Source: Nitrospirota bacterium
Lineage (GTDB): Bacteria > Nitrospirota > Thermodesulfovibrionia > Thermodesulfovibrionales > Dissulfurispiraceae
NCBI GenBank assembly: GCA_040754455.1
Contig: JBFMCP010000039.1
Location: 1-25,916, forward strand
DNA: 25,916 bases
Direction: 5' to 3'
Shown piece by piece: positions 222 through 21,946 of this stretch; the first letter of the stretch is position 1, and each line of letters opens with the position of its first letter. Below the pieces are notes generated by a model. That model saw nothing but the letters and a program-made list of their open reading frames with translations. It searched no databases and was not told where the DNA came from. A program made the position numbers and the translations under genes.

Positions 222-1643
222 ATGAAAGAAAGAGATATCTTTGAAGAGATCATCAATTTAGGCAAGCGGCGCGGCGTGCTTACCTATGATGAGATAAATG
301 AAGCCCTTCCCTCTGAGTTCTTCTCTCCCGATGAACTAGAAGACCTCATGGACGTCCTCAATGATATGGGCGTCAAGGTCGTCGACTATGAGGAGTCCAT
401 TCTGGCAGAAGAGGAAGCAGAGGAAGAAGTAGAAGAATATGAGAGAGCGGAAGACCTTGTCCAGGCATATTTCAATTCCATGGGTGACATCTCCATCCTC
501 ACCAAGGATGAGGAGACCACGCTGGCAAAAAAGCTTGAGCAGGGAAGAGAGATCATAAAAGGAACCATCTCTGCGCTTCCCATTTTCGAGCATATAAAGA
601 ACAACCTTGAAGTAGAGGACGAAGAGGGGATCACTACTGAAGAAGAGAAGGCCGATGAGGCGTTGATAAAGACCCTCTCGAGACTCGAAGAGTTAATGGA
701 AGTCGTTGAGAAGGCCGATAGCAAAGTCAAGAAATACGGCTACCTGAAAGGACTGAAGGCAGCAGTCAACGAAAAGAAGAAAAAAGGGACGAATGCAAAA
801 AAGCTGGAGCTCCTGCTGAAAGAAGTTCAGGCAGATTACAAAAGAGTAGAGCAGGAAGTCGGCATCAAAGTCGATGCCCTGAGAGACCTGTGGAACAGGA
901 TATCCAAAGCGAGATATCTTGTAATAGAGACCAAGAATGAGCTTATCACGAGGAACCTCAGGCTCGTTGTCAATATTGCAAAGAACTATGTCGGAAGAGG
1001 GCTTCCCCTGCTGGATCTTATCCAGGAAGGAAACATCGGCCTGATGAAAGCCGTCGACAAGTTCAAATATGAAAAGGGGTTCAAGTTCAGCACCTATGCG
1101 ACCTGGTGGATACGGCAGGCGATAACCCGTGCACTCATTGATCAAACGAAGACAATACGTGTTCCCGTGCACATGATGGAGTTCTACAACCGTGTGACCA
1201 AGGCATCGAGAGAGCTGACCCAGCAGGTAGGGAGAGAACCTACCAACGAAGAGATTGCGAAGAAACTGCTCGTGCCGGTCAGAAAGGTTGAGGAGGTTTT
1301 CAGGGCGATTCAGGACCCGATCGCGTTACAGACACCAATTGGCGATGAGGATACAGAACTCGAAGATTTCATCGGCGACAAGACGAGCCCTTCACCCTAT
1401 TCCGATGCAGAGCGGATCGAGACCTCCGAGCAGATCCAGAGGGTGTTGAGAACGCTGACGCCCAAGGAAGAGACCGTTATCCGTATGCGATTCGGCATCG
1501 GCGTCGACCGTGACCACACGCTCGAAGAGGTAGGACGATATCTCTCGATTACGAGAGAGCGTGTACGCCAGATCGAAGCAAAGGCGTTGAGGAAGCTGAA
1601 ACACCCGAGCAGATTGAGAGCACTGAAGATACTCACCAGCTAA
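222..1643 (+). CDS. rpoD: RpoD/SigA-family sigma-70 factor with region 1.1, possibly a divergent paralogue
   Basis: Region 1.1 (GKRRGVLTYDEINEALP), region 2 (NLRLVVNIAKNY..RGL..LDLIQEGNIGLMKAVDKF...GFKFSTYATWWIRQAITR), region 4 HTH (TLEEVG....TRERVRQIEAKALRKL). Start moved to ATG 222 because the TTG at 81 lies inside the rRNA. Confidence 0.92.
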   Translation: MKERDIFEEIINLGKRRGVLTYDEINEALPSEFFSPDELEDLMDVLNDMGVKVVDYEESILAEEEAEEEVEEYERAEDLVQAYFNSMGDISILTKDEETTLAKKLEQGREIIKGTISALPIFEHIKNNLEVEDEEGITTEEEKADEALIKTLSRLEELMEVVEKADSKVKKYGYLKGLKAAVNEKKKKGTNAKKLELLLKEVQADYKRVEQEVGIKVDALRDLWNRISKARYLVIETKNELITRNLRLVVNIAKNYVGRGLPLLDLIQEGNIGLMKAVDKFKYEKGFKFSTYATWWIRQAITRALIDQTKTIRVPVHMMEFYNRVTKASRELTQQVGREPTNEEIAKKLLVPVRKVEEVFRAIQDPIALQTPIGDEDTELEDFIGDKTSPSPYSDAERIETSEQIQRVLRTLTPKEETVIRMRFGIGVDRDHTLEEVGRYLSITRERVRQIEAKALRKLKHPSRLRALKILTS

Positions 1644-1716: not shown

Positions 1717-2739
1717 TTAGTTCCTGAACTGATCTCCGGCCTTGATCTCTTTGATCGACTTTTTCACCAGCGCAACAGAGGCCTTAGCACTTGCGTTGAT
1801 TATCTGAAGCGTACCGATGGTGATATGAGGCTGGTCACCGGTAATTACATTGAAAACATCACCAACTTCTATACCGTCGCTGCTTCCTTTATCCAGGTAG
1901 GCGAATTCTTCCTGGCCGATTATGCTCCGATCAATGTTTACCTTTACGATCATTCCATTCAGGGGCGGTCTTTTCTCTGCAAGCGGTTCCAGGGGCAGCT
2001 CCACAGTATAAAAGGGAATAAACGCATCTCCTTTTACTATCTCTCTGTACGACTCCAGGATTACCGCCCTTTGATTGCCGGTATCTTCGCTGGTTGTTTC
2101 GATCACCCCTTTGATTCTGACGAGATAGCCGAGCACGGCCTCGGTCTTAGGATGGACCATCCTTTCAGGTTCGCTTATGACATAGAATTTTGTTGCGAGC
2201 GGAGCAGGATTCTTGATAGTAATGAACACCGTATCACCACATCCTGCAAGGCCATAGTCTTTCATAGAACCCTTTATCTCGCCCGCTCTCGTCACCTCAC
2301 TTACAACAGAACCGGCCTGCAAGAGAACCTCTTTTGACGTCAAATACTTTCTCGTGGCAACCGGGACTTCTTTGGGGGACACTTTCCGGGGCGTGATCAC
2401 CCGTCCAGTCACCTCGATCTGCTTCTCCTGTTGTGTCTCTTGCCCTTCTTTCTCTAACGGCTGTCCCTTCAGCTCCTGCTTCGCCATCTCTCCGGGGATC
2501 GCCAACTGCTGCCCAGGATATATCCAGTGCGGGTCCTTTATATGGGGGTTCGCCTTCCAGAGTTTCGGCCACTGAAAGGGATCTTTTAACGTTGCAGTTG
2601 CGATGTCCCACAGCGTATCACCTTCTTTTATGGTATAGGTTACGTCTTTCCCCTCCTCTGCCATGAGGGGGACCGTACATATCCAAAGAAACAGCACCAT
2701 AAAAAATAGAACGTTCTTATGTGTTACCTGAATGCTCAT
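1717..2739 (-). CDS. Secreted LysM peptidoglycan-binding protein (TsaP-like architecture)
   Basis: N-terminal hydrophobic signal peptide, LysM motif YTIKEGDTLWDIA...WPKLWKANPHIKDPHWIYPGQ, beta-rich C-terminus (YLDKGSSDGIEVGD); GGAGG SD upstream. Confidence 0.85.
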   Translation of the reverse strand: MSIQVTHKNVLFFMVLFLWICTVPLMAEEGKDVTYTIKEGDTLWDIATATLKDPFQWPKLWKANPHIKDPHWIYPGQQLAIPGEMAKQELKGQPLEKEGQETQQEKQIEVTGRVITPRKVSPKEVPVATRKYLTSKEVLLQAGSVVSEVTRAGEIKGSMKDYGLAGCGDTVFITIKNPAPLATKFYVISEPERMVHPKTEAVLGYLVRIKGVIETTSEDTGNQRAVILESYREIVKGDAFIPFYTVELPLEPLAEKRPPLNGMIVKVNIDRSIIGQEEFAYLDKGSSDGIEVGDVFNVITGDQPHITIGTLQIINASAKASVALVKKSIKEIKAGDQFRN

Positions 2740-2781
2740 TAATCCTCCTTTGAGCTGTCGCTGCAGGATGACCAGGGCTTA

Positions 2782-4167
2782 TTATGCCTCACTCGTTGCC
2801 GTCATTATAGATTTTTTTATCGAATCCATCAAGAGCGTAATACCATCTCTGCCTATACTGAGCGGCGGCATGATGACCACCACATTACCGAGCGGCCTAA
2901 TCAGAATCCCCATCTCCCGTGCTGCATAGGCAACCTTCCATCCCCTCTTCTCTTCCCATGGATAGGGCTCTTTGGTGGACGTGTCTTTTACCAGCTCAAT
3001 GCCTGCCATGAGTCCTTTGCTCCGCACATTGCCGACATGGGGGAGCCCGGCGATCTCTCTTAATGTATTATCGAGAATTTCGATATTCTCTTGCATATGC
3101 TCCAGTGTATGCTCGCTCTCGAAAACCCGGATACATGCTTCGGCAGCAGCGCAGGCAAGGGGGTTCCCCGTATAGGAATGGCCGTGAAAGAAGGTCTTCA
3201 GCTCTTTGAATTCACCGAGAAAAGCAGAATAGACCTCGTCAGTGGTCAATGTTGCCGCAAGGGGCAGGTAGCCGTTGGTTATTCCCTTTGAGAGACAAAG
3301 AATGTCAGGAACGACCTGTTCATGCTCGCAGGCGAACATTTTGCCGGTCCTGCCGAAACCGGTGGCAACCTCATCGGCAATAAGCAGCACATTGAACCGG
3401 TTGCAGAGCTCCCGGACTCCCCTGAGATAGCCTTCCGGCCAGATGATCATGCCGCCTGCAGCCTGGACCAGCGGCTCAACAATGACTGCAGCTATTTCGG
3501 AGGCATGTCGCTCCAGAATAGCTGCCATTTCCCTGAGGCACTCCTTTCCACATACATCGCAGCTTGTTCCGAATTCACAGCGATAACAGTACGGCGAAGA
3601 CGCCTTATACGTCCTGAAAAGAAGTGGATTGAAGGTGCTGTGGAAGATATCAATGCCGCCGACGCTCACCGCACCAAGGGTATCGCCATGGTAGGCGTTC
3701 TTGAGAGAGAGGAAGGTATGCCTTCCTTTCACCCCTTTATGGATCCAGTATTGAAACGCCATCTTGAGCGCGACTTCCACTGCAGTAGAGCCGTTGTCGG
3801 AATAAAAGACCTTTGATAACCGCGGCTGGAGTCCGGCAAAGGAGATATCGGTAAGAGCGATGAGCCTCTCAGCTAGTCTGATCGATGGAATATTGCCGAG
3901 TCCGAGCAGTGTGGAGTGGGCAATCCTATCGAGCTGCGCCTTGATTGCCTCGTCGATCTCTTTTTTCCGGTGGCCGTGGATGTTTACCCAGATCGAGGAG
4001 ACGCCGTCAAGGTACCATTTGCCATAGACATCTTTGATGAAACAGCCTCTACCCTCGGTAATAATGATCGGCTCCTCACCAAACCAATCCTTCATCTGGG
4101 TAAAAGGGTGCCAGATATACCGCCTGTCTGCTTCAATGAGGTGCTTTATTTCATCGAGGTAACCCAT
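2782..4167 (-). CDS. bioA: Adenosylmethionine-8-amino-7-oxononanoate transaminase (DAPA aminotransferase)
   Basis: IWHPFTQM, DGVSSIWVNIHGH, SDNGSTAVEVALKMA, YHGDTLGA, LIADEVATGFGRTG, SKGITNGYLP (PLP lysine), FFHGHSYTGNP, IRPLGN. Confidence 0.95.
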   Translation of the reverse strand: MGYLDEIKHLIEADRRYIWHPFTQMKDWFGEEPIIITEGRGCFIKDVYGKWYLDGVSSIWVNIHGHRKKEIDEAIKAQLDRIAHSTLLGLGNIPSIRLAERLIALTDISFAGLQPRLSKVFYSDNGSTAVEVALKMAFQYWIHKGVKGRHTFLSLKNAYHGDTLGAVSVGGIDIFHSTFNPLLFRTYKASSPYCYRCEFGTSCDVCGKECLREMAAILERHASEIAAVIVEPLVQAAGGMIIWPEGYLRGVRELCNRFNVLLIADEVATGFGRTGKMFACEHEQVVPDILCLSKGITNGYLPLAATLTTDEVYSAFLGEFKELKTFFHGHSYTGNPLACAAAEACIRVFESEHTLEHMQENIEILDNTLREIAGLPHVGNVRSKGLMAGIELVKDTSTKEPYPWEEKRGWKVAYAAREMGILIRPLGNVVVIMPPLSIGRDGITLLMDSIKKSIMTATSEA

Positions 4168-4230
4168 GGTGTCTTCTTAGGAGCTTTATAATCTGCACCT
4201 TAGTATATCACAACGACTATAATAATCCTT

Positions 4231-4920
4231 ATGGGCAAACAACGGAGTATCATGTTTCTATGGCTTACCGCATTCTGGCTTGCTGCAGGCTGCGCAACAA
4301 CGGGGAGTGCGGATTGGAAACATTCTGAAGAGTGCTTTCCCCGGCTCACTGCCGGCGCCTACGATAAAATTATTCGGGACTCGAAAGCGATCCTGCGAAA
4401 TAATCGATGGAATGCCGATGCCCATGCCTGCCTCGCTATGGCTTACTACCTAAAAAGTAATACTGAATTTGCTCTAAAAAGCCTGAAGGGGGCAGAGGAC
4501 ACCATCCCCAAGGAGGCGATCGATGCTATCCACGATAAAATATGGATGCACCTGCCCGAACTGCTTGCGGAAAAAGAGTACAGGGACTTTCATGCGATCA
4601 CCGGCGGCGACTGCATCCTGCGCAACGTAACAGCACTGGACGGTAATGGCTTCCTCATCCTCGGCTACTTTTATAATCCAGAAGTGCAAAAGCGTATACG
4701 CCATATCAGAGGCAATAAATGTGATGCGAATATGGATACGTGCTCGGAAATCGACAAGGTGTGTCCCGCCTGCACCCTTGAGGAATCAGAGGCAGTGATA
4801 ACAATAAGAGACTACAAGATCTCAGAAGTTCAGAAGCTTATTGACAATAGACCGATTGAGAGAAATATACGATATATAGAGAAGATTTTGGAGCTGGAGC
4901 TCAATAGGATAACGAGGTAA
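4231..4920 (+). CDS. Hypothetical lipoprotein with TPR-like N-terminal helices and a Cys-rich C-terminal segment
   Basis: Lipobox LAAG-C after a hydrophobic stretch; NADAHACLAMAYYLK is TPR-like; fills the gap between bioA and greB. Confidence 0.7.
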   Translation: MGKQRSIMFLWLTAFWLAAGCATTGSADWKHSEECFPRLTAGAYDKIIRDSKAILRNNRWNADAHACLAMAYYLKSNTEFALKSLKGAEDTIPKEAIDAIHDKIWMHLPELLAEKEYRDFHAITGGDCILRNVTALDGNGFLILGYFYNPEVQKRIRHIRGNKCDANMDTCSEIDKVCPACTLEESEAVITIRDYKISEVQKLIDNRPIERNIRYIEKILELELNRITR

Positions 4921-4928
4921 ACAGCCCT

Positions 4929-5447
4929 TTACCCTTCCTTGCTGAACGCTTCGTAGCTCACTTCAATAATGGTAAATACCGCTTTGCCTTTGGGTCGCTG
5001 CACCGTGACCTCGTCCCCTCCGGACTTGCGCAAGAGGGCCTGGGCCATCGGCGAATCGATGCTGATGAACCCTTTATCAGGATCGAGCTCATCGGGACCG
5101 ACAATGCGGTATTCGAATACTTCACCTTCCTTATCCTCAAGCCGCACCCAGGCGCCGAAAAAGATCTGCGAATCGTTATCAGGCTTGCGGTCAACGACAA
5201 CGAGAGCATCCAGGCGCTTGGTAAGAAATCTGATGCGCGCATCGATCTCACGCAACATCTTCTTTCCATATATATATTCGGCATTTTCGGAGCGGTCGCC
5301 CATGGCAGCTGCTTCGGCAACCGCCTGCGTCACTTTCGGCCGCTTCACCTTCCATAAATGGTTCAGCTCGTCGGTGAGGCATTTTTTTCCTTCCGGAGTG
5401 ATGTAGTTGGATTTCTGGTGGTGCTGTAGGTTATGCCGTCTTCTCAT
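4929..5447 (-). CDS. greB: Transcription elongation factor GreB
   Basis: NYITPEG...EL..LWKVKRPKVTQAV..AAAMGDRSENAEYIYGKKMLREID.RIRFL, FFGAWV, YRIVGPDE, ISIDSPMA.ALL; start trimmed to ATG 5447. Confidence 0.95.
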   Translation of the reverse strand: MRRRHNLQHHQKSNYITPEGKKCLTDELNHLWKVKRPKVTQAVAEAAAMGDRSENAEYIYGKKMLREIDARIRFLTKRLDALVVVDRKPDNDSQIFFGAWVRLEDKEGEVFEYRIVGPDELDPDKGFISIDSPMAQALLRKSGGDEVTVQRPKGKAVFTIIEVSYEAFSKEG

Positions 5448-5570
5448 AGTGTAATGATCGTCCTTTTCAGGCTTGCGTGAGCCAGAGAGATATTTTATCA
5501 CATTCAGCCCCTGTACCGATGAAAAGACCCTCTTGTGCAGAGGAATTGACGAGGAACAGAGAGGGCGTCC

Positions 5571-5598
5571 TTGAAACATTCCGCAGAGATGATAAAAT
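5571..5598 (+). promoter_or_regulatory. Putative sigma70 promoter of the beta-propeller/DUF305 operon
   Basis: TTGAAA (5571-5576), 16-nt spacer, extended -10 TG-A-TAAAAT (5593-5598); GGAGG SD before ATG 5629. Confidence 0.5.
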
Positions 5599-5628
5599 GG
5601 AATTATCTTTAAGCCCGGGAGGTCTGTT

Positions 5629-6999
5629 ATGGATCAGCACGAGGTTTCGCGGAGAGAATTCCTGAAGGTGCTGGGTGCCGTTGTCGTAGCTGCACAACTC
5701 CCCTCCTCTTTCGCTGAGGTGTTTGCCCGGGATATCGGTGCGCTCGACCGCGTCTTCATTGCCAATGAGGATTCCAATACCATAAGCGTGATCAACCCCG
5801 CAAGCAACGTCATTGAGACCACGATCAACCTGACCAGTTTCGACGAAGACCCACGGCCTCCGTTCCGTTTCGTCACCGCAGGAGTGATGCCCACGCATGC
5901 CGCCATGATCCATAAACCACTCTATCACGGCTGCATTGACGCCCATGGGGTGGTGCCGTCTCCTGACGGACGCCTGCTGGCGACCTGCGGCAGGGGATCG
6001 GGCAATGTCTATCTGATCGATACCACGAACAAAAAAGTCATCGGCAATTCGCCGAATCCGTCAGCATCAGCTTCGACCAATGCCGAGCGGCTGACGAGCG
6101 GTATTCTGGTCGGGCGCGAGCCGCATGAGCCGACATTCACCAGAAACGGCAAAGAGCTCTGGATCGCCATTCGCGGAGAGAACAGGATCGCGATACTTGA
6201 TGTTGCCGGAGCGATCAAGCAGTCCGAAGGAGCGCGGGGGAGCTCGATCAAAAGGTATATAGGCACCGTAAACGGGCCCTCCCAGGTGTGGTTCAATGCG
6301 AAAGGCACCCTCGCCTTTGTCGCAAGCCAGAAAGCTTCCTTAATTGATGTATTCCGTGTGAATCCCAATGCCAAGGGATATTCCAATCCGACGCGGCTCT
6401 CTACTATCGATATCAGCCAGCAGGACAAGCCGGGCTTTACGCCGTTCCTCAAGACCGCTCCCGGCGGCACCGAGGTCTGGTTCTCCCACAAGCTGGCGGA
6501 CGCGGTATCAGGGCGCTCGACAACCGAGCCCTTTGCCCTGCTCGATGTCGTTGCGCTCGGCAACATGGCAAGGCCCAACCACTTCGAATTCGTCGAAAAC
6601 GCAAAAGGCAACGTTATGTATGTCAGTCTCGCACGGGTTGATGACAACGGCCCCGGCGGGGTGGCATCGAGCCAAATTGCGATCATCGACCGCAGCGCAG
6701 CACCGGGCAGTCGGAGGGTGGTCGGGACCTTCTTTTCTCACGGTCGCGAGGCGCACGGACTCTGGACAAACCCGGCAAACAATCTCCTCTATATCGCACA
6801 TGAACAGGACGAGCTGCCCGGCACGCCGAATGCCGGACAGACTGTGGCGAGCGCCTTCGACGTCTCCGATCCTTTCGCGCCGAAATTCATCGCCCAGATA
6901 CCGCTCGGCAGCCTCAAGCTCCCTTCGGGTGAATTAAGGAACAAAAAGAGCATCAACCTCGTTTATGTGCGCCCCGGCTATAAGGGACAGACGGCATAG
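5629..6999 (+). CDS. Tat-exported YncE/YVTN-like beta-propeller protein, His-rich
   Basis: Twin-arginine motif SRREFLK plus hydrophobic stretch; propeller blades (RVFIANEDSNTISVINP, HGVVPSPDGRLL, EPHEPTFTRNGKELWIA, GPSQVWFNAKG, EAHGLWTNP). Confidence 0.8.
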   Translation: MDQHEVSRREFLKVLGAVVVAAQLPSSFAEVFARDIGALDRVFIANEDSNTISVINPASNVIETTINLTSFDEDPRPPFRFVTAGVMPTHAAMIHKPLYHGCIDAHGVVPSPDGRLLATCGRGSGNVYLIDTTNKKVIGNSPNPSASASTNAERLTSGILVGREPHEPTFTRNGKELWIAIRGENRIAILDVAGAIKQSEGARGSSIKRYIGTVNGPSQVWFNAKGTLAFVASQKASLIDVFRVNPNAKGYSNPTRLSTIDISQQDKPGFTPFLKTAPGGTEVWFSHKLADAVSGRSTTEPFALLDVVALGNMARPNHFEFVENAKGNVMYVSLARVDDNGPGGVASSQIAIIDRSAAPGSRRVVGTFFSHGREAHGLWTNPANNLLYIAHEQDELPGTPNAGQTVASAFDVSDPFAPKFIAQIPLGSLKLPSGELRNKKSINLVYVRPGYKGQTA

Positions 7000-7009
7000 G
7001 GAGAAGATC

Positions 7010-7474
7010 ATGCGATATCTCTCTATCTTATTGCTCGGCGTGCTGCTCTCCAATGCAGTCTGGGCAGAGGACCATGCGCATCAGAAATCATCGCCCGCGC
7101 CGCAAAGTCCGGCGCCCGAACCGTTCCAAAAAGAGATGAACGAAGGTATGGAAAAGATGATGCACGATATGCACGCCCGGGGATACACAGGGAATCCCGA
7201 CATCGACTTCCTGAACATGATGATTCCCCACCACCAAGGCGCCATCGAGATGGCCCGGCTCGTCCTCGTCTACGGCCGCGATCCGATAACACGGATGCTC
7301 GCTGAAGAGATCATTGCAAGCCAGCAGGTCGAAATCGATGCAATGAAAAAACGTCTTTCCATCCTCCGCAGCCGAAAGGCTACCGACCCGGAAGAGTTCC
7401 CTGCTCTCGGCGGCACCCGGGGAAGAACGGAACCCAGCGACGGAGGACAGAAGACAGTACCGGAGAAACAGTGA
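7010..7474 (+). CDS. Secreted DUF305 / CopM-like Met/His-rich helical metal-binding protein
   Basis: Signal peptide; MNEGMEKMMHDMH; GNPDIDFLNMMIPHHQGAIEMA...LAEEIIASQQVEIDAM DUF305 signature; start ATG 7010 with a GGGAG SD. Confidence 0.85.
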   Translation: MRYLSILLLGVLLSNAVWAEDHAHQKSSPAPQSPAPEPFQKEMNEGMEKMMHDMHARGYTGNPDIDFLNMMIPHHQGAIEMARLVLVYGRDPITRMLAEEIIASQQVEIDAMKKRLSILRSRKATDPEEFPALGGTRGRTEPSDGGQKTVPEKQ

Positions 7475-7891: not shown

Positions 7892-9199
7892 CTATTTCCT
7901 CCATACCCCCGCCCCCGGCTCGTAGCTGCAGAGCCAATGATGGGCATCTAGAGAACCCTTCCATTCAATGGTTCGAACCAGGCAGGCCCGACATCCGAGC
8001 CTGAATTCACAGGCCGAGCATGATGTGATGTCGTTTCGCGCTGTCGCAGCAAAACGATCGAAGAAACCTTGTCCGAGAATGGTAGCGAGGCTCTCCTCGG
8101 CAAGGCTAGCGACAGCGATCTTCCATCCCGGACAAGGTTTGACAGCGCCATCGGCGCCAATAAAGAGTGCGTTATAAAAACAGTGATGGCGCTGGCTGTT
8201 GATCATGAATTGCCTGAGATCCACGGCCATATCAGCAGGTCCCTGCGGGGCGACAACATTCCTGATATGCTCCGGGGTATGCTTTCCGGGAAGGCCGTAG
8301 ACAAGAAATTTAATCCCTACAGCCCCGTGGGATACAGCAAAATCCGCTGTGGCAATTGCCGCCTCTTCGCGACCGATCCGGGCAGGTATTTTTGCGGTAA
8401 ATGCCACGCCCCGGGAAGCAAAACGGCTGACTGCATTGAGCAGGGAATTATAGCCGGACGGGTGCCGTACTGCACGATTGAAGGCCCGCGTATTCGAGGC
8501 GGCAAAAGGCATGGCGATGCGCACATCAAAAGAGCAGAGGCGCTCTATCATTTCGCAATCGATTACTCCGGTCGTGTGCAGTTCGCTCTTCATTCCGAGA
8601 CGAGCGGCAAGCTCGAGGAGCTGCCAGAGCCTGTCCGCCTCTCTGAAAGGCTCACCGCCAGCAATAACCAGACGGTCAAAGCCGAGAGACCGGAGCAACT
8701 CGACACTCCGGACAATCCGCTCCATGGGGAGCATGGATATCTCTGTGTCGGTCTTCGGCGACACAAAACAGCCGCAGGGCTCGGCAGCAAGCGCACCTTT
8801 GGAAGCACACCATTCGCAATCATAAAGGCACTCCCTGGCAAGCTCGATCGTGACACTGCCCCCCTGGAAGTTAAATCCCTCTTTCTTGATCTGTGCATCG
8901 AGTGCCCAGGGCCGGTAGCCTTCTGTAGCAAAGGGATACGGCGCATACCGTCCGACATGCAGGCTGATCAATGCATCGATATACTGCCTGAGCTCATCAT
9001 ATCGAAGGTGGCTTCGCTCTGCCGCCTCCTCAATCGATCTTCCTTTAGCCAGGAGCGCCAGCGCTTCGGATATCTCCTGCCTGTTAAACCAGTAGAGCTT
9101 GCCGTCGAAAAGGTCGTGAACAACGGAACCATGCACGCCGCGGACAAACTGCGTATGCGGCAGAAACACAAAGTAATTATTGTTATCGGAATGGATCAT
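7892..9199 (-). CDS. Radical SAM/SPASM-domain protein 2 (putative peptide maturase or partner)
   Basis: CxxxCxxC (CLYDCEWC), AGGEP, SPASM C...IGADGAVKPC...CSACEFRLGCRAC...C; N-terminal beta-beta-beta-helix segment resembling a RiPP recognition element; start overlaps the upstream stop (TAATG). Confidence 0.85.
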   Translation of the reverse strand: MIHSDNNNYFVFLPHTQFVRGVHGSVVHDLFDGKLYWFNRQEISEALALLAKGRSIEEAAERSHLRYDELRQYIDALISLHVGRYAPYPFATEGYRPWALDAQIKKEGFNFQGGSVTIELARECLYDCEWCASKGALAAEPCGCFVSPKTDTEISMLPMERIVRSVELLRSLGFDRLVIAGGEPFREADRLWQLLELAARLGMKSELHTTGVIDCEMIERLCSFDVRIAMPFAASNTRAFNRAVRHPSGYNSLLNAVSRFASRGVAFTAKIPARIGREEAAIATADFAVSHGAVGIKFLVYGLPGKHTPEHIRNVVAPQGPADMAVDLRQFMINSQRHHCFYNALFIGADGAVKPCPGWKIAVASLAEESLATILGQGFFDRFAATARNDITSCSACEFRLGCRACLVRTIEWKGSLDAHHWLCSYEPGAGVWRK

Positions 9200-10773
9200 T
9201 ACCTGACATCCAGAAAACGGTAGCGGTCTACCAGAGGATCGCCGAAAGAGAGCGCATCCGGTACTTCTTCGAGAAGAGAATAGAGCGTGACCAGCTTATC
9301 AAGGACGACAGCGCGGGCAAAGCGGCACTGCTCCTCGGGGAAGCGAAACCCGCCGTCACGGCCGACATGCGCAAAGCAGAGATGGCACATACCGCGCGCC
9401 CAGCAGTTATTACAGGACGGCAGGGATGCAGCGTAGCGCCGCATCACCTCGTTGCACCGCTCCACATTGACCCCCTCATGAACAGAGCCTATCGGGAACT
9501 CCTCGGATATCCGCTCGCATATGTGGAAGGCACCGTCGGTAGACACGGTCAATCTCCTGCCCGGTTGACAGGTGCCTGTATAATGGCCCTGACATCCTCC
9601 ACCGAACTTCATGATCCGGCTATAGACGCCGATGAGTGATTCCTCAACGTAGTGATAGAGAAAAGAGCCCTCGGGCACAGGGATCTTATTACGCTTGCGG
9701 GTGAAATACTCATCCAAAATGCTGCTGTGCAGCTGTTGATAGCGGCGGGAGTCAAAAGGAAAAAACTTGTGAAAATCACCGGTCGCCAGATCTCGCAGAA
9801 TGTTCACGAAGGCGATTTGCGGGGCCCTTTGCCCTGGATCATCGAAGAAGCGCAAGATCGCCTCCAGGTCGGAATTCCCGTTGATCGTCACCAATGCCCG
9901 CACCTGCTCATTGAAGTATGCTTCGTCCAGAGAGCGGAGCAATTCCAGGTTGCGCCAGACTGCATCAAAAGTCCCCTTTCCCGAAGGGAAACGGCGATAG
10001 CGGTCGTGCTCGCTCGCTGGCCCATCGAGACTGCAGTTGATGCCGATGCGATTGCTCACGAGAAAATCGGCTGCCCTTTTCGTGAGCGAGGTAAGATTGC
10101 TCGTTACTGAAAAGTGCAGCTTGAAGCGGCCATCGTTCCGCGAGCAGGCATACCGGATGACCTCTTCCAGCATGTCGCTGCAGAGCAGAGGCTCCCCTCC
10201 GTAAAAACTTATATCGAGCTTGCGGTCCGGGATCGAGCGGAAGTAATCCGTATCATTGAGAGATAAGAAGATATCGATCGCCTTCCGTGCCGTCTCCCAG
10301 GACATAAATGATTTACCGAGAGGGCTGAAGCCTTGGTAAAGACCCGAATAGATGCAGTAATCGCAGCGCAGATTGCAGTCTTTCGTGAGCACGAGGATAA
10401 GATTGCTCAACGTGCTCGGGGCAGGTGTCCACTGGAGAGGCTGTGTACAGGAGCGTTCGCGATCATCCGTTGTTCCGGAAATGCGGCCCGGACAACCGCG
10501 GTGCGATGCGCCGAAGGCGCGGGCGGTACGGCGCCACTTAAGCATATACGCGCACAACGCTGAGACGCCGTTCTCTTCAGCGACAGCAGCCCTGAGCGCA
10601 TCATCGCAGTCCTCGTAGAGCGCAGCACATTGCTCCCCGGATACCGGTTGGAACAGGGGATGGGCAGTGAGCGTAGCGGCATCAAAGAGATACTGTGCGC
10701 CTGAACGGGTGGTAAAGATCAAAAAATGAGGATGCTCAAATACCGATGCATCCTTCGCAACCGGAGAATTCAT
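9199..10773 (-). CDS. Radical SAM/SPASM peptide maturase 1 (resembles CcpM / GG-Bacteroidales-type Cys-rich peptide maturases)
   Basis: LTKDCNLRCDYCIYSG (CxxxCxxC), SFYGGEPLL, TSNLT, SLDGP..EHDRYR, SPASM GTCQPG..L.VSTDG.FHICERI...IG...CNNCWARGMCHLC...C; N-terminal RRE-like region. Confidence 0.92.
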   Translation of the reverse strand: MNSPVAKDASVFEHPHFLIFTTRSGAQYLFDAATLTAHPLFQPVSGEQCAALYEDCDDALRAAVAEENGVSALCAYMLKWRRTARAFGASHRGCPGRISGTTDDRERSCTQPLQWTPAPSTLSNLILVLTKDCNLRCDYCIYSGLYQGFSPLGKSFMSWETARKAIDIFLSLNDTDYFRSIPDRKLDISFYGGEPLLCSDMLEEVIRYACSRNDGRFKLHFSVTSNLTSLTKRAADFLVSNRIGINCSLDGPASEHDRYRRFPSGKGTFDAVWRNLELLRSLDEAYFNEQVRALVTINGNSDLEAILRFFDDPGQRAPQIAFVNILRDLATGDFHKFFPFDSRRYQQLHSSILDEYFTRKRNKIPVPEGSFLYHYVEESLIGVYSRIMKFGGGCQGHYTGTCQPGRRLTVSTDGAFHICERISEEFPIGSVHEGVNVERCNEVMRRYAASLPSCNNCWARGMCHLCFAHVGRDGGFRFPEEQCRFARAVVLDKLVTLYSLLEEVPDALSFGDPLVDRYRFLDVR

Positions 10774-10801: not shown

Positions 10802-11293
10802 TTAAAACGCTTTTGCAGCATGGCCTGCTACGGCTCCGGTCGCTCCCAGCGCAGCAGTAAGGGTTGCAGCGCAGGCGCTGCAGAGAGCGCAGGCGGTACA
10901 GGCGGTACACAAGTCGCACTCTGCGACAGGGCCGAACTTGTCGACAATCTCTGACGGAAGCGCCGAGGAAAAGCCTGAATCTTTCAGAATCTTAATATAA
11001 ATCCTATAATAATCTGCGGGCTCGGGCTCTTTTTTCGCCATCAGTGCCATAACCTCTTTCTTTAGCTTCTCTTCATTCTTGCGGATTTCCTGATAGATGG
11101 CACGATCTATGCTGTTGGCAACTGTTCCCGTTTTTGTGAGCTTAACCAGTTTTCCAAGCGTTTCCTGTGCTGCTTTTTTTGCCGCCTTTGCTTGTTCAGG
11201 GGTGCTCTTTTTGCTCCGGTAGTCCTTCCCGAAATCCTCGACAACCTTAATTTTCTTTGCAGCAGCAGCCGGCAGCTTTTTTACCACTGGCAT
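10802..11293 (-). CDS. Putative RiPP precursor: long Lys-rich leader plus six-Cys (Cxx)6 core
   Basis: Strong SD AAGGAGG; first gene of the operon with two rSAM/SPASM genes; all six Cys at residues 126,129,132,135,138,141, followed by an Ala/Gly/Thr-rich tail. Confidence 0.8.
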   Translation of the reverse strand: MPVVKKLPAAAAKKIKVVEDFGKDYRSKKSTPEQAKAAKKAAQETLGKLVKLTKTGTVANSIDRAIYQEIRKNEEKLKKEVMALMAKKEPEPADYYRIYIKILKDSGFSSALPSEIVDKFGPVAECDLCTACTACALCSACAATLTAALGATGAVAGHAAKAF

Positions 11294-11494
11294 AGGATTT
11301 TCCTCCTTATCAATTGTTATAAGGAGTATTTAGCACAAAAAGTGAGGGAAGTCAAGCTGTTGTCACTCGATCCACTATCATCTTAAGAGAGGAGTGCCGA
11401 TCGCTGATATCAATTTAATCGATCATCTTAAAGAACGATCTCTTGAGTGATGGGCAGGTCTTGTCTTTTGAAAAAGTAAGTGAGGACATTTATC

Positions 11495-12607
11495 TTACCC
11501 CCATCGCAACTCCAGCGTATTGTCGTTACGCAGAGCCACTTGCGTTCCCAGTCTGCGCCCCTCTCTGTTCAAAACTTCATTCAGCCACAGCGCTTCCTCT
11601 TCCGATGCTCGGTTCACCCTAAAGCGCCGCATCCGTGTCGGTGTCATCCGTAGACGGACAAGCTTTCCGTTCAACGGATCAACGCTGGCGAAGTACATTA
11701 AGCTCAGGTCGCCCCTGAAGAATTCATAACCGCTGATGCCCTCGTAGTCGGTCAGGAAATCGCCGCAGCCGTAGAGGATGAGCTTGTTGCTGTATACTTC
11801 GATTCCCTTCACGTGATGGGAGGAATGTCCATGAACGACGTCAATGCCGGCGCTGTCGATCAGTGCATGGGCAAACGATCCCTGCTGGCGAGGGATATCA
11901 TAGCCCCAGTTGCTGCCCCAATGGATTGAGGCAATGACGATATCTCCCGGTTGCTTCATCTGCCGGACAATATAGTCGATGTCTTTCACCCTCTCAAACG
12001 AGAGATCGGGCAGAAAGTTCACGCCCGGTCTGTCTTTTGCGGCAGCCCATGTTTCGGGAATGCCGCTCGTTTCAGAGCCGAAGGAAAATACGACGACTCT
12101 TCCCTTGCCGGCAATCTCCTTTATTGCAGACGCTTCAGCCTCCCTTATAGTACGCCCTGCTCCCGCATACTGTATCCCTGCGCGCTGCAAGGTCTCGATC
12201 GTCTCAATGAGGCCCGGATATCCCCAGTCGAGAACATGGTTGTTGGCGAGTGCGCAGATGTCGATCTTTGCTGCGGTAATGCACGGAATGTTCCCGGGAT
12301 GCATTCGGTAATTGATGCCCTTGTCGAACCAATACTCGTCGCTCTTTGTTACAGCGGTCTCCAGATTGATAATTCTTGCATCCGGCGCTAACCGCTCCAG
12401 CTCATCAAAGGCCTCGCCCCAGATATAAGGGAAATCGACCGGCTTCTGAATCGGGCCGTTCACTTGCTCTGCAAGTTGTACGTAGATCCTTGCATCCCCT
12501 ACGTAAGGCTCGTAGAGCACCGGATCGCTCGGGTGGGGCAGCACCTGGTCGATGCCCCTCCCGGTCATCACATCACCGCACATGAATATAGTGATAGGGC
12601 CGGTCAT
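11495..12607 (-). CDS. CapA-family (poly-gamma-glutamate synthesis-like) metallophosphoesterase-fold protein
   Basis: GDVMTGRGI, INLE, LANNHVLDWG, SIHWG, VHGHSSHH, YGCGDF motifs; no signal peptide. Confidence 0.9.
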   Translation of the reverse strand: MTGPITIFMCGDVMTGRGIDQVLPHPSDPVLYEPYVGDARIYVQLAEQVNGPIQKPVDFPYIWGEAFDELERLAPDARIINLETAVTKSDEYWFDKGINYRMHPGNIPCITAAKIDICALANNHVLDWGYPGLIETIETLQRAGIQYAGAGRTIREAEASAIKEIAGKGRVVVFSFGSETSGIPETWAAAKDRPGVNFLPDLSFERVKDIDYIVRQMKQPGDIVIASIHWGSNWGYDIPRQQGSFAHALIDSAGIDVVHGHSSHHVKGIEVYSNKLILYGCGDFLTDYEGISGYEFFRGDLSLMYFASVDPLNGKLVRLRMTPTRMRRFRVNRASEEEALWLNEVLNREGRRLGTQVALRNDNTLELRWG

Positions 12608-12646: not shown

Positions 12647-14386
12647 CTATATATTTGTGAAACAGGCAGTTCCATTCCCATCAGCAATCTTCCAGATAAG
12701 CTCGAAATTGCAGATGATGACTAATGGATTGCCGGTTGCATCCTTCACGATCTGTCCGTTGCCGTCGGTGGCGAGGAGCAGGTCATTGGGCTTTAGTAAC
12801 GAGCCGTCATACCCCGCATTTCTGAGATTCTCTTTCACCTTGTCCAGCATCATCCGGCATTGCGCCTCATCGATAAGGCCCCGATCAACGGCCTTGGCAA
12901 GATCGACCGGCACATGGAGCGGGCCGACCTGCTCGGCGACCCAGTGGTCGGGGCCGTTGTAGTAGCCGCGAATGGTAATATAGTTGTGGTTCTCCTGCAG
13001 AATAGGATTGCCATCAGGATCCAGGATATTCTTATGTGATTCGTATCTCCTCAGGTCCGCCGATGCCTCAACCTTGGCAGTGCCGGTCATGTAGATCGCC
13101 CTTACATAGACGCAGGGGATGCCGAGCTGATTCAGCGTATGGGCAATGGCAAATTCTTCAAACGGGCTGTTGATGCCGAATTCGCGGATCTTTGCCGGAT
13201 GCTCCTCCTCGCTCTCCCCCGGCAGCTCGCCGACTCTCGAGGTCTCCCAGACGAGATGAATGTTATCCTTAGTGATGGTGTAGAAGACCTCCTTGTTTTC
13301 AGACAATCTGATGGAAGGGGTTTTCCTCCACCGCTCAGGAAGGAAGTAATCGAAGAGCCGTGCATTCTTGCCCACCACCCACAGATGCCCGCCGGTGCTT
13401 TCCGCATGACCGTAAATGTAGGGTACGCCGAAGATCTCCATGCTCGACAGATGGGGGGGCAGCGGCGTCGGAATAAAACGATCCCGCTGATCATCCAGAT
13501 AGGAATGGCGTCTGCAGCTCTTGACCTGCTCTTCGTGATCGGCGGTGCGGAGCAGGAGTTCATAATCGACGATTGAATATTTACCTGTGTTTATTACCTG
13601 ATACAAATGATCAATCTGATCCTTTGAGGGGTCGATTACGGGCATCTTTCCGATATCTTCAACGCGCTTTGCATCATCCTCACTGATAATGATATGCTCC
13701 GGCTTCATATCCGCCACCAGATATCCCTTTTTATCGAGATCGGCCATGACATGGCGATTGAGTTTTGACAGATGCAGGGTGCGTTCATCATCGTTGATAT
13801 CGATATGCCCGAAGACTTCCTTGAGATTATGCCCTTCGATCCATTCATAAATCATCTTGTACTGTTTGAGGATGTCGAGATCGATGCCGGGATGTTTTGC
13901 GTGAATACGGTTGATTCGGGCCTTCGATCTTCCGCTCTGCCATGGCTGCATCCTTTCGGGCGGCACATAGATTGCCAGGGGGCGCTGCGTATTTATTTTC
14001 AGCTCCCGCGGGCCGAGCCGGTTCTCCCGCATCTCCATAACCAGAGAGAACTCCTCCCAGGGGCTGTTGAATTCGGCATCGCAGAATTCCTGCAGCGTGT
14101 GGGTGTTGAGCGGAACGTCTTCGCCGACACGGCAGTTCTTGACAACAAGATCGAGGCTCTTGCCGTACACCTCCTTTGTCGGCAGCCGGTAGACGGAGCC
14201 GGTGCCCTCGAGCCTTACTTTGTGTCTGTTGAACCATTCTGCTTCATACCAGTTATTCGTTTCGAGATGCTCTTGGTACTTCTCGGCAAACCGGGTGAGA
14301 TAGAGATCACCGCCGTCGAGAGTTTTAAAGTGGGCATAGACGACCCCCAAGACATTGACGAGCGTTTTTCTGGAGGTTTTATGCAT
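12647..14386 (-). CDS. Hypothetical protein made of two tandem protein-kinase-like repeats (intact N-terminal, degenerate C-terminal)
   Basis: Repeat 1: EGTGSVY, LVVK, NSPWEEF, ADMKPEHIII, IVDYE. Repeat 2: LVWE, NSPFEEF, SLLKPNDLLL, ICNFE. Confidence 0.7.
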   Translation of the reverse strand: MHKTSRKTLVNVLGVVYAHFKTLDGGDLYLTRFAEKYQEHLETNNWYEAEWFNRHKVRLEGTGSVYRLPTKEVYGKSLDLVVKNCRVGEDVPLNTHTLQEFCDAEFNSPWEEFSLVMEMRENRLGPRELKINTQRPLAIYVPPERMQPWQSGRSKARINRIHAKHPGIDLDILKQYKMIYEWIEGHNLKEVFGHIDINDDERTLHLSKLNRHVMADLDKKGYLVADMKPEHIIISEDDAKRVEDIGKMPVIDPSKDQIDHLYQVINTGKYSIVDYELLLRTADHEEQVKSCRRHSYLDDQRDRFIPTPLPPHLSSMEIFGVPYIYGHAESTGGHLWVVGKNARLFDYFLPERWRKTPSIRLSENKEVFYTITKDNIHLVWETSRVGELPGESEEEHPAKIREFGINSPFEEFAIAHTLNQLGIPCVYVRAIYMTGTAKVEASADLRRYESHKNILDPDGNPILQENHNYITIRGYYNGPDHWVAEQVGPLHVPVDLAKAVDRGLIDEAQCRMMLDKVKENLRNAGYDGSLLKPNDLLLATDGNGQIVKDATGNPLVIICNFELIWKIADGNGTACFTNI

Positions 14387-19434: not shown

Positions 19435-21549
19435 TTACCGCAACAACCTCGAAGAATTCAGGAAGACGAGGACATCGGGCATGACATGGGCCACCGCTGC
19501 CATTGCAGGGGAAAGGATACCCACCGAGGCAAGGCTTATCCCGACCACGTTGAAGAGGATGCCAAGGGTAAGGTTCTGTTTTATGACCTTGAAGGTATTC
19601 CTTCCGATCCTGACCGCTTCGGGGATCTGCTTCCACTCATCGCGCATGAGCGCCACATGGGATGCCTCAATCGCTGCGCCCGAGCCTACCGCACCCATGG
19701 CAATGCCCACATGCGCCTGGGCAAGGGCAGGGGCATCGTTAATGCCGTCGCCAATCATGAGGACGTATTTCCCTGCCGCGGCGAGCTCTCTTACCCTAGC
19801 AACCTTATCTTCGGGAAGCAGTTGGGCCATGAACTTCTTGATGCCGAGCGTTGATGCGATCACCTGTGCGGTCCTCGGATTGTCGCCGGTGAGCATAATC
19901 GGATCAGCAAAGCCGAGCCCCTTCAGCTCATCTATTGCCTCAATCGTACCCTCACGGATGATATCGGCAACACTGATCGCTCCGCAGATAACATTTTTAT
20001 GGGCCAAAAGCAGAACGGTATTCCCCTCTGCTTCTTTCGTTTCGAGGTAGCCCTCGACTTCAGGGGTGATCATTATATCCTTATCTCTGAGCAGCTCCCG
20101 GCTGCCCAACACTATTCGCTCTCCTTCGATGACTGCCTCAATGCCTTTGCCGGGAATGACCTTGTAGTCATCGGGATCAGGAGCTTCGATGCCCATATCC
20201 ACCGCCTTCTTGAGGATCGCTTTTGCAAGGGGGTGCTCCGAATACCGTTCAGCACCAGCGGCGTAGGCCAGTATCTTCTCGTTGCTGCAGCCGAAGCCCT
20301 TCACTTCGGTGACGATGGGGTCGCCGAGCGTGAGTGTGCCGGTCTTGTCCATTACCAGGGTATCGACCTTTGCGAGAGATTCGAGGTGAAGTCCGCCTTT
20401 GATAATGATCCCCCTTTTGGCCGCCTTGCCCATGCTCGCCACCATCGCCAAAGGTGTCGCTATGGCAACGGTGCAGGGACAGGCGACAACGAGCACCGCT
20501 ATCGAGTAGGTGATATTTCTTGTCGCAATAAATACGAGAACGGCAATGGTGAGAATGGCAGGAGTGAAGTAGGCGGCAAACCGGTCGGCCACTCTCTGCA
20601 CCTTGGCTTTGGAGGACTCAGCCTCCTCGACGAGCTTGATGATGCGCGCGTAGGTCGTATCTTCCCCGGTGTGGGTCACCTTTATGAAGAGGATGCCGAG
20701 CTGATTGATGGTGGCAGCATAGACCTGGTCGCCCTCTCTCTTTTCGACAGGGATCGATTCACCGGTGATCGGCGCCTGATTTACTGACCCCCTGCCCGAG
20801 ATAATGATGCCTTCAACGGGTATCTTTTCTCCTGCCTTGACCACCACCACATCGCCGCGCCTCACCTCTTCTACCGGCACCTCTACTTCATAGTTGCCTC
20901 TCTTTACCCGCGCGGTTTTCGGCGCCAGCTCTATCAATTCTTTGATGGCCTTCCGGGAGCGCTCCATGGTAAAGGAGTCAAGGAGCTCGGCAATGAGCAT
21001 GAAAAAGGCGATGATTCCTGCAGAACGGATCTCTCCGATCGCCGTCGATGCGATAACGCCCAGGGACATGAAGACATCGGCGGTGATCGCCTTTTCCCTG
21101 AGGTCGGCAACGGCATGCCTCACCAGCGGGTAGCCGCCGATGAGCACCGCCAGAATGGAAAAGAGATCAAAAGGAATTTTGAAGAATCTTTCTGATAGCG
21201 CCGTATAACTGAGAAGGAGGAGGAGTAATACCACACCGATTCTGGTAAGCTCAAAACTCCACTCATGGGTCAAGAGGCGCTCGAGAAACGTCTTTTGGCC
21301 CGGAGCCTTTTCTTCCGAAGCGATCTTGAATCCCAATCCGGTAATACTACTGATTATCGATTTCTCATTAATGACCGAGGGATCGAAACGGATGTCGATC
21401 TTTCTCGTGCTCAGATAGATCGTAACGCTCTTTACACCATTGTGACGCATAAGCGCCTTTTCAGCCTTTTCCGCACAACTAGCGCAATCCAATCCGCCGA
21501 CCTGAAGGCTGAGGACCTTTACGTTCCCTTCTGAAGCTGCTCTATTCAT
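19435..21549 (-). CDS. Heavy-metal-translocating P1B-type ATPase (CadA/ZntA-like)
   Basis: HMA domain GLDCASC, ITGES, CPC in TM6, DKTGT, SEHPLA, TGDN, GDGINDAPAL; overlaps the regulator's 3' end. Confidence 0.95.
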   Translation of the reverse strand: MNRAASEGNVKVLSLQVGGLDCASCAEKAEKALMRHNGVKSVTIYLSTRKIDIRFDPSVINEKSIISSITGLGFKIASEEKAPGQKTFLERLLTHEWSFELTRIGVVLLLLLLSYTALSERFFKIPFDLFSILAVLIGGYPLVRHAVADLREKAITADVFMSLGVIASTAIGEIRSAGIIAFFMLIAELLDSFTMERSRKAIKELIELAPKTARVKRGNYEVEVPVEEVRRGDVVVVKAGEKIPVEGIIISGRGSVNQAPITGESIPVEKREGDQVYAATINQLGILFIKVTHTGEDTTYARIIKLVEEAESSKAKVQRVADRFAAYFTPAILTIAVLVFIATRNITYSIAVLVVACPCTVAIATPLAMVASMGKAAKRGIIIKGGLHLESLAKVDTLVMDKTGTLTLGDPIVTEVKGFGCSNEKILAYAAGAERYSEHPLAKAILKKAVDMGIEAPDPDDYKVIPGKGIEAVIEGERIVLGSRELLRDKDIMITPEVEGYLETKEAEGNTVLLLAHKNVICGAISVADIIREGTIEAIDELKGLGFADPIMLTGDNPRTAQVIASTLGIKKFMAQLLPEDKVARVRELAAAGKYVLMIGDGINDAPALAQAHVGIAMGAVGSGAAIEASHVALMRDEWKQIPEAVRIGRNTFKVIKQNLTLGILFNVVGISLASVGILSPAMAAVAHVMPDVLVFLNSSRLLR

Positions 21550-21946
21550 CTTCCTCTATATGCCTCAAACATTCGTTGAATAAGTGATTTATATGTTCAT
21601 CATCAAGAGAATAAAATATCATCTTTCCCTCTTTTCTGTACTTGACCAGCCGCATGTTTCTCAATACCCTCAATTGGTGGGAGACTGCAGAACGAGTAGT
21701 AGTGAGCAGCGTAGCAATATCACAGACGCAGAGCTCTTCGAGGGAGAGGGCATAGATGATTTTTGTCCTCGTCGGATCCCCAAGCACTCTGAAGGTCTCG
21801 GCAATCCTCTGCATGGAGTCCTCAGGCTTCATCCTTTTCTTGACTGAGGCGACCTTTCTCACGTCAACACAGGTAGTCTCGCAAATCTCAGCCGTGCGCC
21901 GTCTGCCCGATCGCTCACGATTTCCGGTCTTTGTTGAAACAGCCAT
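21542..21946 (-). CDS. ArsR/SmtB-family metal-sensing repressor (CadC/ZiaR-like)
   Basis: N-terminal CxxxC (CETTC), ELCVCDI alpha3 site, SAVSHQLRVL HTH, alpha5 site DEHI...HIEE; SD GGAGGAG before ATG 21946. Confidence 0.93.
   Translation of the reverse strand: MAVSTKTGNRERSGRRRTAEICETTCVDVRKVASVKKRMKPEDSMQRIAETFRVLGDPTRTKIIYALSLEELCVCDIATLLTTTRSAVSHQLRVLRNMRLVKYRKEGKMIFYSLDDEHINHLFNECLRHIEEDE

Follow-up and report, generated by a model that had tools for sequence, protein, structure and literature searches.

According to the sections consulted of a 2021 sactipeptide review, sactipeptides carry one to four bridges each, and nested hairpins are the rule. Among the closest described systems to the one reported here is thurincin H, in which C4, C7, C10 and C13 are linked to S28, T25, T22 and N19; with n = 4, its outermost acceptor lies at +15 and its tail is 18 residues long (2021 sactipeptide review). 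The same sections describe thuricin Z, with a mirrored spacing at a step of 4, the RumC peptides, with two short double hairpins and four bridges, and PapA, a ranthipeptide precursor with six thioethers in one peptide and the only one of any kind known there to have so many. Cys-Gly sactionines are given in excerpts of PMC10288494 for StsA (C2/4/6 to G15/13/11) and BlaA (C13/15 to G22/20). Here, we describe a precursor gene and two adjacent radical S-adenosylmethionine (radical-SAM) genes in a 25,916-nt stretch of a Nitrospirota bacterium (assembly GCA_040754455.1, contig JBFMCP010000039.1, positions 1 to 25,916), which we call the window. We propose that the C terminus of this precursor would be held in a nested ladder by a thioether at every Cys, six in the window peptide, and we assign this reading a probability of about 0.5. 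It is supported by a length rule among homologues, in which the tail behind the cysteines grows with their number.

Results

A six-cysteine core behind a long leader

The precursor, its parts and the two enzyme genes lie as follows.

10802..11293, minus strand: precursor gene, 163 amino acids (aa), stop codon counted in, from the open reading frame (ORF) list and its translation
11302..11307, minus strand: ribosome-binding site AGGAGG, read from the sequence, 8 nt ahead of the ATG
10919..11293, minus strand: leader, residues 1-125, a helical domain and then a variable linker, predicted from the alignment and an AlphaFold model
10871..10918, minus strand: Cys ladder spanning residues 126-141, with its six Cys, the proposed thioether donors, at spacing 3
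10805..10870, minus strand: tail, residues 142-163, 22 aa = 3x6+4, the proposed hairpin acceptor arm
10890..10909, no strand assigned: perfect 9-bp tandem repeat, 2.2 copies (Tandem Repeats Finder), encoding CTA-CTA triads
9199..10773, minus strand: radical-SAM/SPASM maturase 1, 524 aa, with a predicted N-terminal domain like a RiPP (a peptide made on ribosomes and modified after translation) recognition element (RRE); Pfam Radical_SAM
7892..9199, minus strand: radical-SAM/SPASM protein 2, 435 aa; Pfam Radical_SAM and SPASM

Read on the minus strand, positions 10805-10918 translate to CDLCTACTACALCSACAATLTAALGATGAVAGHAAKAF, which is residues 126-163 of the precursor. Cysteines stand at 126, 129, 132, 135, 138 and 141 and nowhere else in the protein; residues 142-145 are AATL, and the triads TAA-LGA-TGA-VAG-HAA-KAF then run up to the C-terminal F163. 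The translation thus bears out an earlier note on this DNA, which had described this six-Cys run, its linker and the six tail triads, had listed residues 147, 150, 153, 156, 159 and 162 as A, G, G, A, A and A, and had remarked that the tail lacks Asp and Glu. Across six frames, the ladder is the window's sole run of at least four Cys at spacing 3, and six-Cys runs at that spacing arose at 0.005 per window in 200 mononucleotide shuffles. The cysteines are the best-conserved residues in the alignment of the precursor family, with C132, C135 and C138 invariant and C126, C129 and C141 at least 90% conserved.

Among characterised peptides, thurincin H alone shares the Cys spacing of the window peptide. 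The N-terminal arm of each has a Cys at every third residue; in thurincin H, the C-terminal arm mirrors this with an acceptor at every third residue, nested, with the innermost pair at i+6 and the outermost at 3n+3 from the last Cys, and the window peptide would be arranged likewise. The thurincin H tail is hydrophobic, like the tails of the family, and holds T-A-A-T-G-A in PDB chain 2LBZ_A, where the ATGA likeness pointed out in the earlier note can be seen. When a profile of nine family cores was searched against 177,635 PDB sequences, the one match was thurincin H (2LBZ) at E=1.8, a similarity that is not significant and only a lead. The two systems differ in that thurincin H has four bridges, whereas six are predicted in the window peptide, and in that its precursor is 40 aa long with a short leader, compared to 163 aa with a leader modelled as folded. 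In addition, its cluster contains one radical-SAM enzyme, a protease and an ABC transporter, whereas the precursor operon of the window has a pair of radical-SAM genes but no protease or transporter gene. A ladder of more than four bridges would go beyond the characterised sactipeptides, as had been supposed; this agrees with the range of one to four in the consulted sections of the 2021 review and with a full-text phrase search that found no sactipeptide with five, six or seven sactionines (subscription-only papers lie outside its coverage).

Tail length follows cysteine number across the family

A HMMER scan of 1.84 billion representative proteins gave 31 matches at E<=1e-3 besides the query, and 30 of these are true relatives (P0102-P0131). 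The remaining match, P0132 (356 aa, E=5.9e-4), was dropped as spurious, being a repeat protein that lacks a Cys run. All 30 relatives share a motif-bearing leader of ~120 aa, a variable linker, 4-8 Cys at spacing 3 and then a tail, which is rich in Gly, Ala, Val and Thr, hydrophobic and mostly ended by aromatic residues. Counts over 31 sequences refer to the window protein plus P0102-P0131, with P0002 omitted as a near-copy of the window protein. For n, we counted the spacing-3 Cys run and, in P0109, P0110 and P0127, also the Cys two residues ahead of it.

Counted in this way, the tail after the last Cys is exactly 3n+4 residues long in 20 of the 31 sequences. In 10 others, C-terminal extensions make it longer, and in 1 it falls short by one residue. 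By cysteine number, the tail lengths are as follows.

n = 4: 16
n = 5: 19
n = 6: 22 in 11/13, 21 in P0130 and 28 in P0109
n = 7: 25 in 7/15 and 26-41 in the others
n = 8: 29

In most of the longer tails, an aromatic residue is still found at 3n+3 or 3n+4 and the extra residues lie beyond it. Cysteine number and tail length are strongly correlated (Spearman rho 0.84, p=2.5e-9, 31 sequences), and none of 100,000 shuffles of the n labels reached 20 exact matches. The co-variation of Cys-triad and tail-triad numbers in homologues had been set beforehand as a test of the hairpin, and its outcome is positive. A length of 3n+4 is that of the thurincin-H-type register (innermost i+6, step 3, outermost 3n+3) plus one residue.

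The rule is not merely a matter of shared ancestry, given that Cys number needs eight changes on a maximum-likelihood tree built from the leaders alone (32 rows, P0002 included). Because the two arms are separate segments, each matched change needs two coordinated indels, which argues for selection for equal arm lengths with one tail partner per Cys. The length rule therefore supports one tail partner for each Cys, most simply in a nested hairpin. As to how rungs might be gained or lost, the perfect 9-bp repeat encoding CTA-CTA suggests slippage of its units as a route to a changed triad number.

Acceptor register

The period of 3 in the family tails is real. Counted from the last Cys, Gly makes up 5-6% of residues at positions 2 mod 3 in the 31 tails versus 30-36% in the other two registers, and the typical triad is Thr/Val/other, then Gly/Ala, then Ala/Gly, with two registers small. 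The start after the last Cys is conserved and turn-like, with S/T at +3 (25/31) and Pro in several members, followed by a hydrophobic residue (Val/Ile/Leu/Met) at +5 in 22/31. Further along, S/T is found at +8 and at +11 (15/31 each) and at +17 (13/30). Conservation in the tail is highest for Gly at +9, +12 (24/31) and +15, and an aromatic residue is at 3n+3 in 17/31; T144, T146, G153 and F163 are the residues of the window tail noted beside these features.

The earlier note had proposed a six-bridge nested sactionine hairpin (a sactionine joins S to an alpha-carbon) with the specific pairs C141-A147 through C126-A162, and had argued that every acceptor is Ala or Gly, hence an alpha-carbon. 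We compared four registers by the share of Gly+Ala among the predicted acceptors.

Innermost offset +4: 67%
Innermost offset +5: 29%
Innermost offset +6, the register of the earlier note: 50%
Innermost offset +7: 62%

In favor of +6, the Gly peaks of the n=6 members fall at +9 (9/13), +12 (12/13) and +15 (9/13), with an aromatic residue at +21 (5/13). Against a strict +6, the Gly peaks of the n=7 members lie at 4, 7, 10, 12, 15/16, 19 and 22, a mid-tail register jump of one, and MAFFT places the window tail one residue out of step with most n=6 relatives. Of that proposal, a hairpin with one partner per Cys is supported by the 3n+4 rule, and the six pairs are not, since the length rule fits innermost offsets from +4 to +7 equally; we regard exactly those six pairs as decidedly unlikely. 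The Ala/Gly argument is likewise unsupported, being true solely in the +6 register. The acceptors of thurincin H are Asn, Thr and Ser (N19, T22, T25, S28), which sit between small residues. Given that Gly and Ala occupy two of the three registers in the family and the thurincin H acceptors the third, the argument that Gly can only be an alpha-carbon acceptor needs +6 to be correct. The window tail is also 59% Ala+Gly (13/22), and shuffling it gave six Ala/Gly acceptors at p=0.023 for a fixed +6 register and p=0.08 with any of four registers allowed, so the pattern alone is weak and not beyond chance.

Maturase 1 and the chemistry of the proposed bridges

The precursor gene is followed after 28 bp by maturase 1 and then by protein 2, whose start overlaps the maturase 1 stop by one base, all on the minus strand. 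Maturase 1 has the CxxxCxxC motif (C133/C137/C140) and seven conserved SPASM Cys in the alignment. Its AlphaFold model (mean predicted local distance difference test, pLDDT, 80.5) places three strands and then three helices at residues 17-84, which is the usual RRE layout. The set that marks a sactipeptide-type radical-SAM enzyme (CxxxCxxC, a SPASM/twitch domain and an RRE) is therefore present, the RRE by prediction. Both by sequence and by fold, its closest PDB entry is CteB (5WGG/5WHY).

The NCBIfam comparison of maturase 1 covers 25 of the 56 families that it matched. Among the matches listed, the best are CcpM (TIGR04068; 215.2 bits, against an equivalog cut-off of 500) and the sactisynthase model RumMC (184 bits, cut-off 720), both far below their cut-offs. 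They are followed by PapB (142.5, cut-off 340), QhpD (130.4, cut-off 453) and the SCIFF maturase (95.3, cut-off 425). The curated sactisynthase score is not reached with RumMC nor with GggB (46 bits, cut-off 650), and no further sactisynthase model is among these 25 families. From these comparisons, the closest likeness of maturase 1 is to the thioether-forming RiPP maturases. A complex prediction for maturase 1 with the precursor scored 0.00, which weighs neither for nor against binding.

The same hairpin could be held by ranthionine bridges, from S to the beta or gamma carbons of T146, L149, T152, V155, H158 and K161. The register of these residues (2 mod 3) is the Gly-poor one and is rich in Thr and Val; the PapB, QhpD and SCIFF-maturase models do match maturase 1, below cut-off, and CteB, the closest solved enzyme, is called a ranthisynthase in excerpts of PMC10288494. 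The same excerpts hold full-length enzyme similarity to be unreliable for telling alpha from beta/gamma chemistry. However, RumMC outscores PapB (184 versus 142 bits), the most conserved tail residues are the three Gly, and the Thr, Ser and Asn acceptors of thurincin H are linked through their alpha-carbons (2021 sactipeptide review, sections consulted). Ranthipeptides are recognized by locally paired Asp/Glu (or other side-chain) acceptors and by a curated PapB, QhpD or SCIFF score; the window peptide has no such pairs, its tail being free of Asp and Glu, and maturase 1 stays below all three scores. PapA, by comparison, has its Cys-Asp/Glu pairs in local motifs, whereas the Cys of the window peptide are clustered and not interleaved with acceptors. 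We consider ranthionine bridges unlikely. Sactionines to Gly alpha-carbons have a parallel in the StsA/StsB and BlaA/BlaB systems, whose hairpins are nested with a mirrored Cys and Gly periodicity, an arrangement predicted for the family too; the family tails keep their Gly at +9, +12 and +15. These systems differ in a spacing of 2 rather than 3, in having two or three bridges and in using an MftC-like enzyme. That all of the bridges here are sactionines is a tentative proposal.

A folded leader and its fate

The leader is confidently modelled (AlphaFold pLDDT 82-91 over residues 11-110) as a helical bundle, with predicted helices at residues 9-26, 32-49, 61-72, 74-86 and 92-105. Across the family, its alignment shows the motif P-x-DYY-x-x-Y-x-KVL-x-DSG, and the linker between this domain and the core varies in length. 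A Foldseek search of the precursor model against the PDB gave no leader match better than E=0.6, and the precursor matched 0 Pfam and 0 NCBIfam families at E<=0.01, the NHLP/Nif11 leader models included. There was likewise no ESM Atlas entry at >=0.9, and a phmmer search of the C-terminal 43 residues against the PDB gave 0 matches at E<=10. A word-indexed protein search with the precursor returned itself and one 88%-identical homologue from a Nitrospirota metagenome-assembled genome (MAG), whose core differs from that of the window solely by L145M; with the family profile, it returned 4 matches, all already known. Our literature search, with subscription-only papers and bioRxiv supplements outside its coverage, found no description of the precursor family, including under CcpM/TIGR04068 and under sactipeptide with long leader and CxxC. 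The family is apparently rare and undescribed, and its leader appears to be a separate leader family. NHLP/Nif11 peptides resemble the window precursor in having a long structured leader ahead of a short core (PMC12537861, in excerpt), and the window precursor differs from them in that its leader has neither a family-model match nor a fold relative.

Type 1 sactipeptides are marked by a short leader with a protease and a transporter in the cluster, whereas the leader here is 125 aa long and modelled as folded, and by Pfam and NCBIfam annotation the precursor operon holds no protease, C39 peptidase or exporter gene. These features, together with the lack of any conserved cleavage motif ahead of the first Cys in the family alignment and the QhpD match of maturase 1 (130 bits), would suit a protein from which no peptide is released: the 163-residue protein would keep its helical domain and carry the cross-linked tail, as QhpC does in quinohemoprotein amine dehydrogenase. 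On the other hand, structured leaders that are later removed are known in the NHLP class (PMC12537861, in excerpt), an ABC transporter lies behind the radical-SAM pair in a related locus (L002, below), and the length variation of the linker before the core is like that of a leader-core junction. We view an uncleaved protein as rather unlikely; this alternative bears on what becomes of the leader and can hold together with the hairpin. Leader cleavage is itself putative.

Protein 2 and related loci

Protein 2 and maturase 1 are not close paralogues (E=0.012), and no sequence in the PDB matches protein 2. At residues ~140-145 of protein 2 (7892-9199, minus strand), pairwise alignments show an extra CxC/CxxC ~15 residues past the CxxxCxxC motif, which is also present in the L001 and L002 copies.

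A genome-contig scan with the maturase 1 sequence alone found no relative. The scan with a maturase alignment gave 79 loci, of which L001 alone has a family precursor. In this locus, from a Deltaproteobacteria MAG, the precursor P0114 lies directly upstream of homologues of both radical-SAM proteins in the same order as in the window, with 46% identity for maturase 1 and 39% for protein 2. The L001 protein 2 weakly matches the AhbD, NirJ and StsB models (StsB 39 bits, cut-off 625) and is the sole protein here with a match to StsB. L002, from candidate division TA06, keeps the radical-SAM pair (protein 2 match E=1e-24), and its maturase homologue matches CcpM with the N-terminal domain included. 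Its precursor is different: behind a short leader come nine Cys, of which the last five are at CxxxC spacing, and the tail is rich in Gly. The L002 locus is laid out as follows.

239-712, plus strand: precursor
895-2436 and 2366-3766: radical-SAM pair
3839-5710: ABC transporter

A six-frame scan of the 79 loci for at least four Cys at spacing 3 gave 10 hits, which were precursor-like only in L001 and L022. The L022 ORF, in an Acetatifactor MAG (5454-5738, plus strand), lies upstream of a radical-SAM gene at 5767-7191 and encodes nine Cys at spacing 3 between a short leader and a tail of 40 residues (Ala, Ser, Thr, Gly and Val). Among the RODEO predictions in the supplement of Precord et al. 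2023 are two Cys-triad precursors with short leaders, both singletons; one is labelled 'Hypervariable Sacti' and the other 'Other Sacti'. These and L022 resemble the family in their spacing-3 Cys runs, their tails rich in Ala, Gly, Val, Ser and Thr, and an adjacent related radical-SAM enzyme. They differ in having leaders of ~10-35 residues, unlike the helical leader, and tails that do not follow 3n+4 (40 for n=8, 40 for n=9 and 15 for n=4-5); none is characterised. Together, these three precursors indicate that Cys-triad cores exist beyond the long-leader family.

The conserved pairing of two radical-SAM/SPASM proteins that are not paralogues in the window, L001 and L002 allows for another arrangement, in which bridging is partial or non-nested. 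The two proteins would then divide the work, or the second would make an epimerisation or a C-C or C-O link, and the other Cys would form disulfides or bind metal. The resemblance of L001 protein 2 to AhbD, NirJ and StsB and the copper-handling genes nearby lean toward it, as does streptosactin, whose sactionines are unnested according to sections of the 2021 sactipeptide review. However, a one-to-one length rule is hard to explain if some Cys have no tail partner, and the Cys are the best-conserved residues of the family; we find this arrangement improbable. Within the nested ladder, protein 2 may share in bridging or may make another modification.

Surrounding genes

A CopM/DUF305 metallochaperone is encoded at 6965-7474 (plus strand) of the window, and 19435-21549 and 21542-21979 (both minus strand) encode, in turn, an HMA-domain P-type ATPase and a regulator of the ArsR type.

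Given the six regularly spaced Cys, and with CopM/DUF305 and a heavy-metal P-type ATPase in the same window, we considered a ladder without covalent modification, which would bind a metal or an Fe-S cluster next to radical-SAM genes that are mere neighbours. This is the least likely alternative and, in our view, highly improbable: the order precursor-maturase-maturase is kept in a distant MAG (L001), tail length tracks Cys number, maturase 1 has a predicted RRE-like domain, and the copper genes are either on the opposite strand or ~8 kb off.

Upstream of the precursor lies a gene for a PGA_cap/CapA-like protein (11495-12607, minus strand; Pfam 267 bits). This protein is weakly like MslH, a lasso-peptide C-terminal Trp epimerase (57 bits, cut-off 700), and the precursor family usually ends in an aromatic residue. 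The gene was rejected as a cluster member, given its 200-bp gap to the precursor and the different gene end seen in the 346 bp upstream of the L001 precursor. Next to it, 12647-14386 (minus strand) encodes a 579-aa protein without a Pfam or NCBIfam match. In the ESM Atlas, it falls with hypothetical clusters as large as 449 and 1072 members (Nitrospirota, Verrucomicrobiota) and with Kdo/WaaP-type kinases at 0.93-0.94, and its PDB matches are marginal kinase ones (E~0.2). This kinase-like gene was likewise set aside because its family is far more widespread than the precursor. At the start of the window, positions 1-88 (plus strand) align with bacterial 23S rRNA at its 3' end (Rfam RF02541, model positions 2838-2925, 67 bits) and are overlapped by a sigma-70 (RpoD-like) ORF at 81-1643 (plus strand) with a TTG start at 81; no 5S rRNA or tRNA comes after. 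Either the sigma factor starts further in, or the 23S/sigma junction is an assembly join.

Discussion

The precursor ORF is very probably a real substrate of the adjacent radical-SAM enzymes. We propose that its ~120-residue helical leader would dock on the maturase with the RRE-like N-terminal domain, and that the C-terminal 38 residues would fold back at a turn just past C141 (A-A-T-L-T). Each of the six Cys would then be thioether-linked to one of the 22 tail residues, giving a nested six-bridge hairpin ladder, and relatives would carry four to eight bridges. The acceptors in the window peptide would come every third residue, beginning 5-7 residues past C141, and the bridges would most likely be sactionines.

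Several points weigh against this reading. Counting the extra upstream Cys of P0109, P0110 and P0127 as a donor was decided once the data had been seen; if that Cys is not counted, 18 of the 31 tails are exactly 3n+4, 12 are longer and 1 is shorter. The 3n+4 rule fits parallel (non-nested) pairing equally, and correlations of side-chain volume stayed at |r|<=0.29 in 40 tests, which does not tell nested from parallel pairing. The acceptor register is ambiguous by Gly+Ala share, and the analogy with thurincin H would favor the Thr/Val register (+5), that is, T146, L149, T152, V155, H158 and K161. In the core of the precursor, the AlphaFold model is unreliable (pLDDT <50). Among the matches listed, maturase 1 scores below the curated cut-off of every NCBIfam maturase model. 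Its residues equivalent to six active-site-proximal ones in the CteB alignment (I141, Y191, T224, S248, E420 and R421) agree with neither the CteB set (F,F,T,S,H,Q) nor the StsB set (Y,T,I,S,K,L), these being the two enzymes for which reference profiles were used (PMC10288494, in excerpt). The operon lacks the protease and exporter genes named above, and direct precursor-enzyme synteny within the family is seen at two loci, the window and L001. Finally, we infer bridge formation, nesting, acceptor identity and alpha-carbon chemistry from sequence.

In summary, the feature is predicted to be a new variant of the radical-SAM thioether-hairpin RiPPs, and its arm-length rule points strongly to a thioether hairpin of several rungs. 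Put in its fullest form, our tentative view is of an undescribed RiPP family with a protein-like helical leader and a length-programmable zipper, in which n Cys triads would be matched by n tail triads to form 4-8 nested alpha-carbon thioethers, 9-bp slippage would tune both arms, and two unrelated radical-SAM enzymes would act. The feature is of interest mainly because it can be tested directly. The 3n+4 rule is a purely genetic read-out of cross-link stoichiometry, and the natural variants of 4-8 rungs offer a series for asking how a radical-SAM maturase counts and orders identical reactions, as well as rigid peptide scaffolds. If the reading is true, the number of bridges per hairpin would rise from four to six-to-eight, in a sactipeptide ladder more densely bridged than any now known, and a new type of folded leader and a two-enzyme system would be added from little-studied anaerobic phyla (Nitrospirota and Deltaproteobacteria MAGs).

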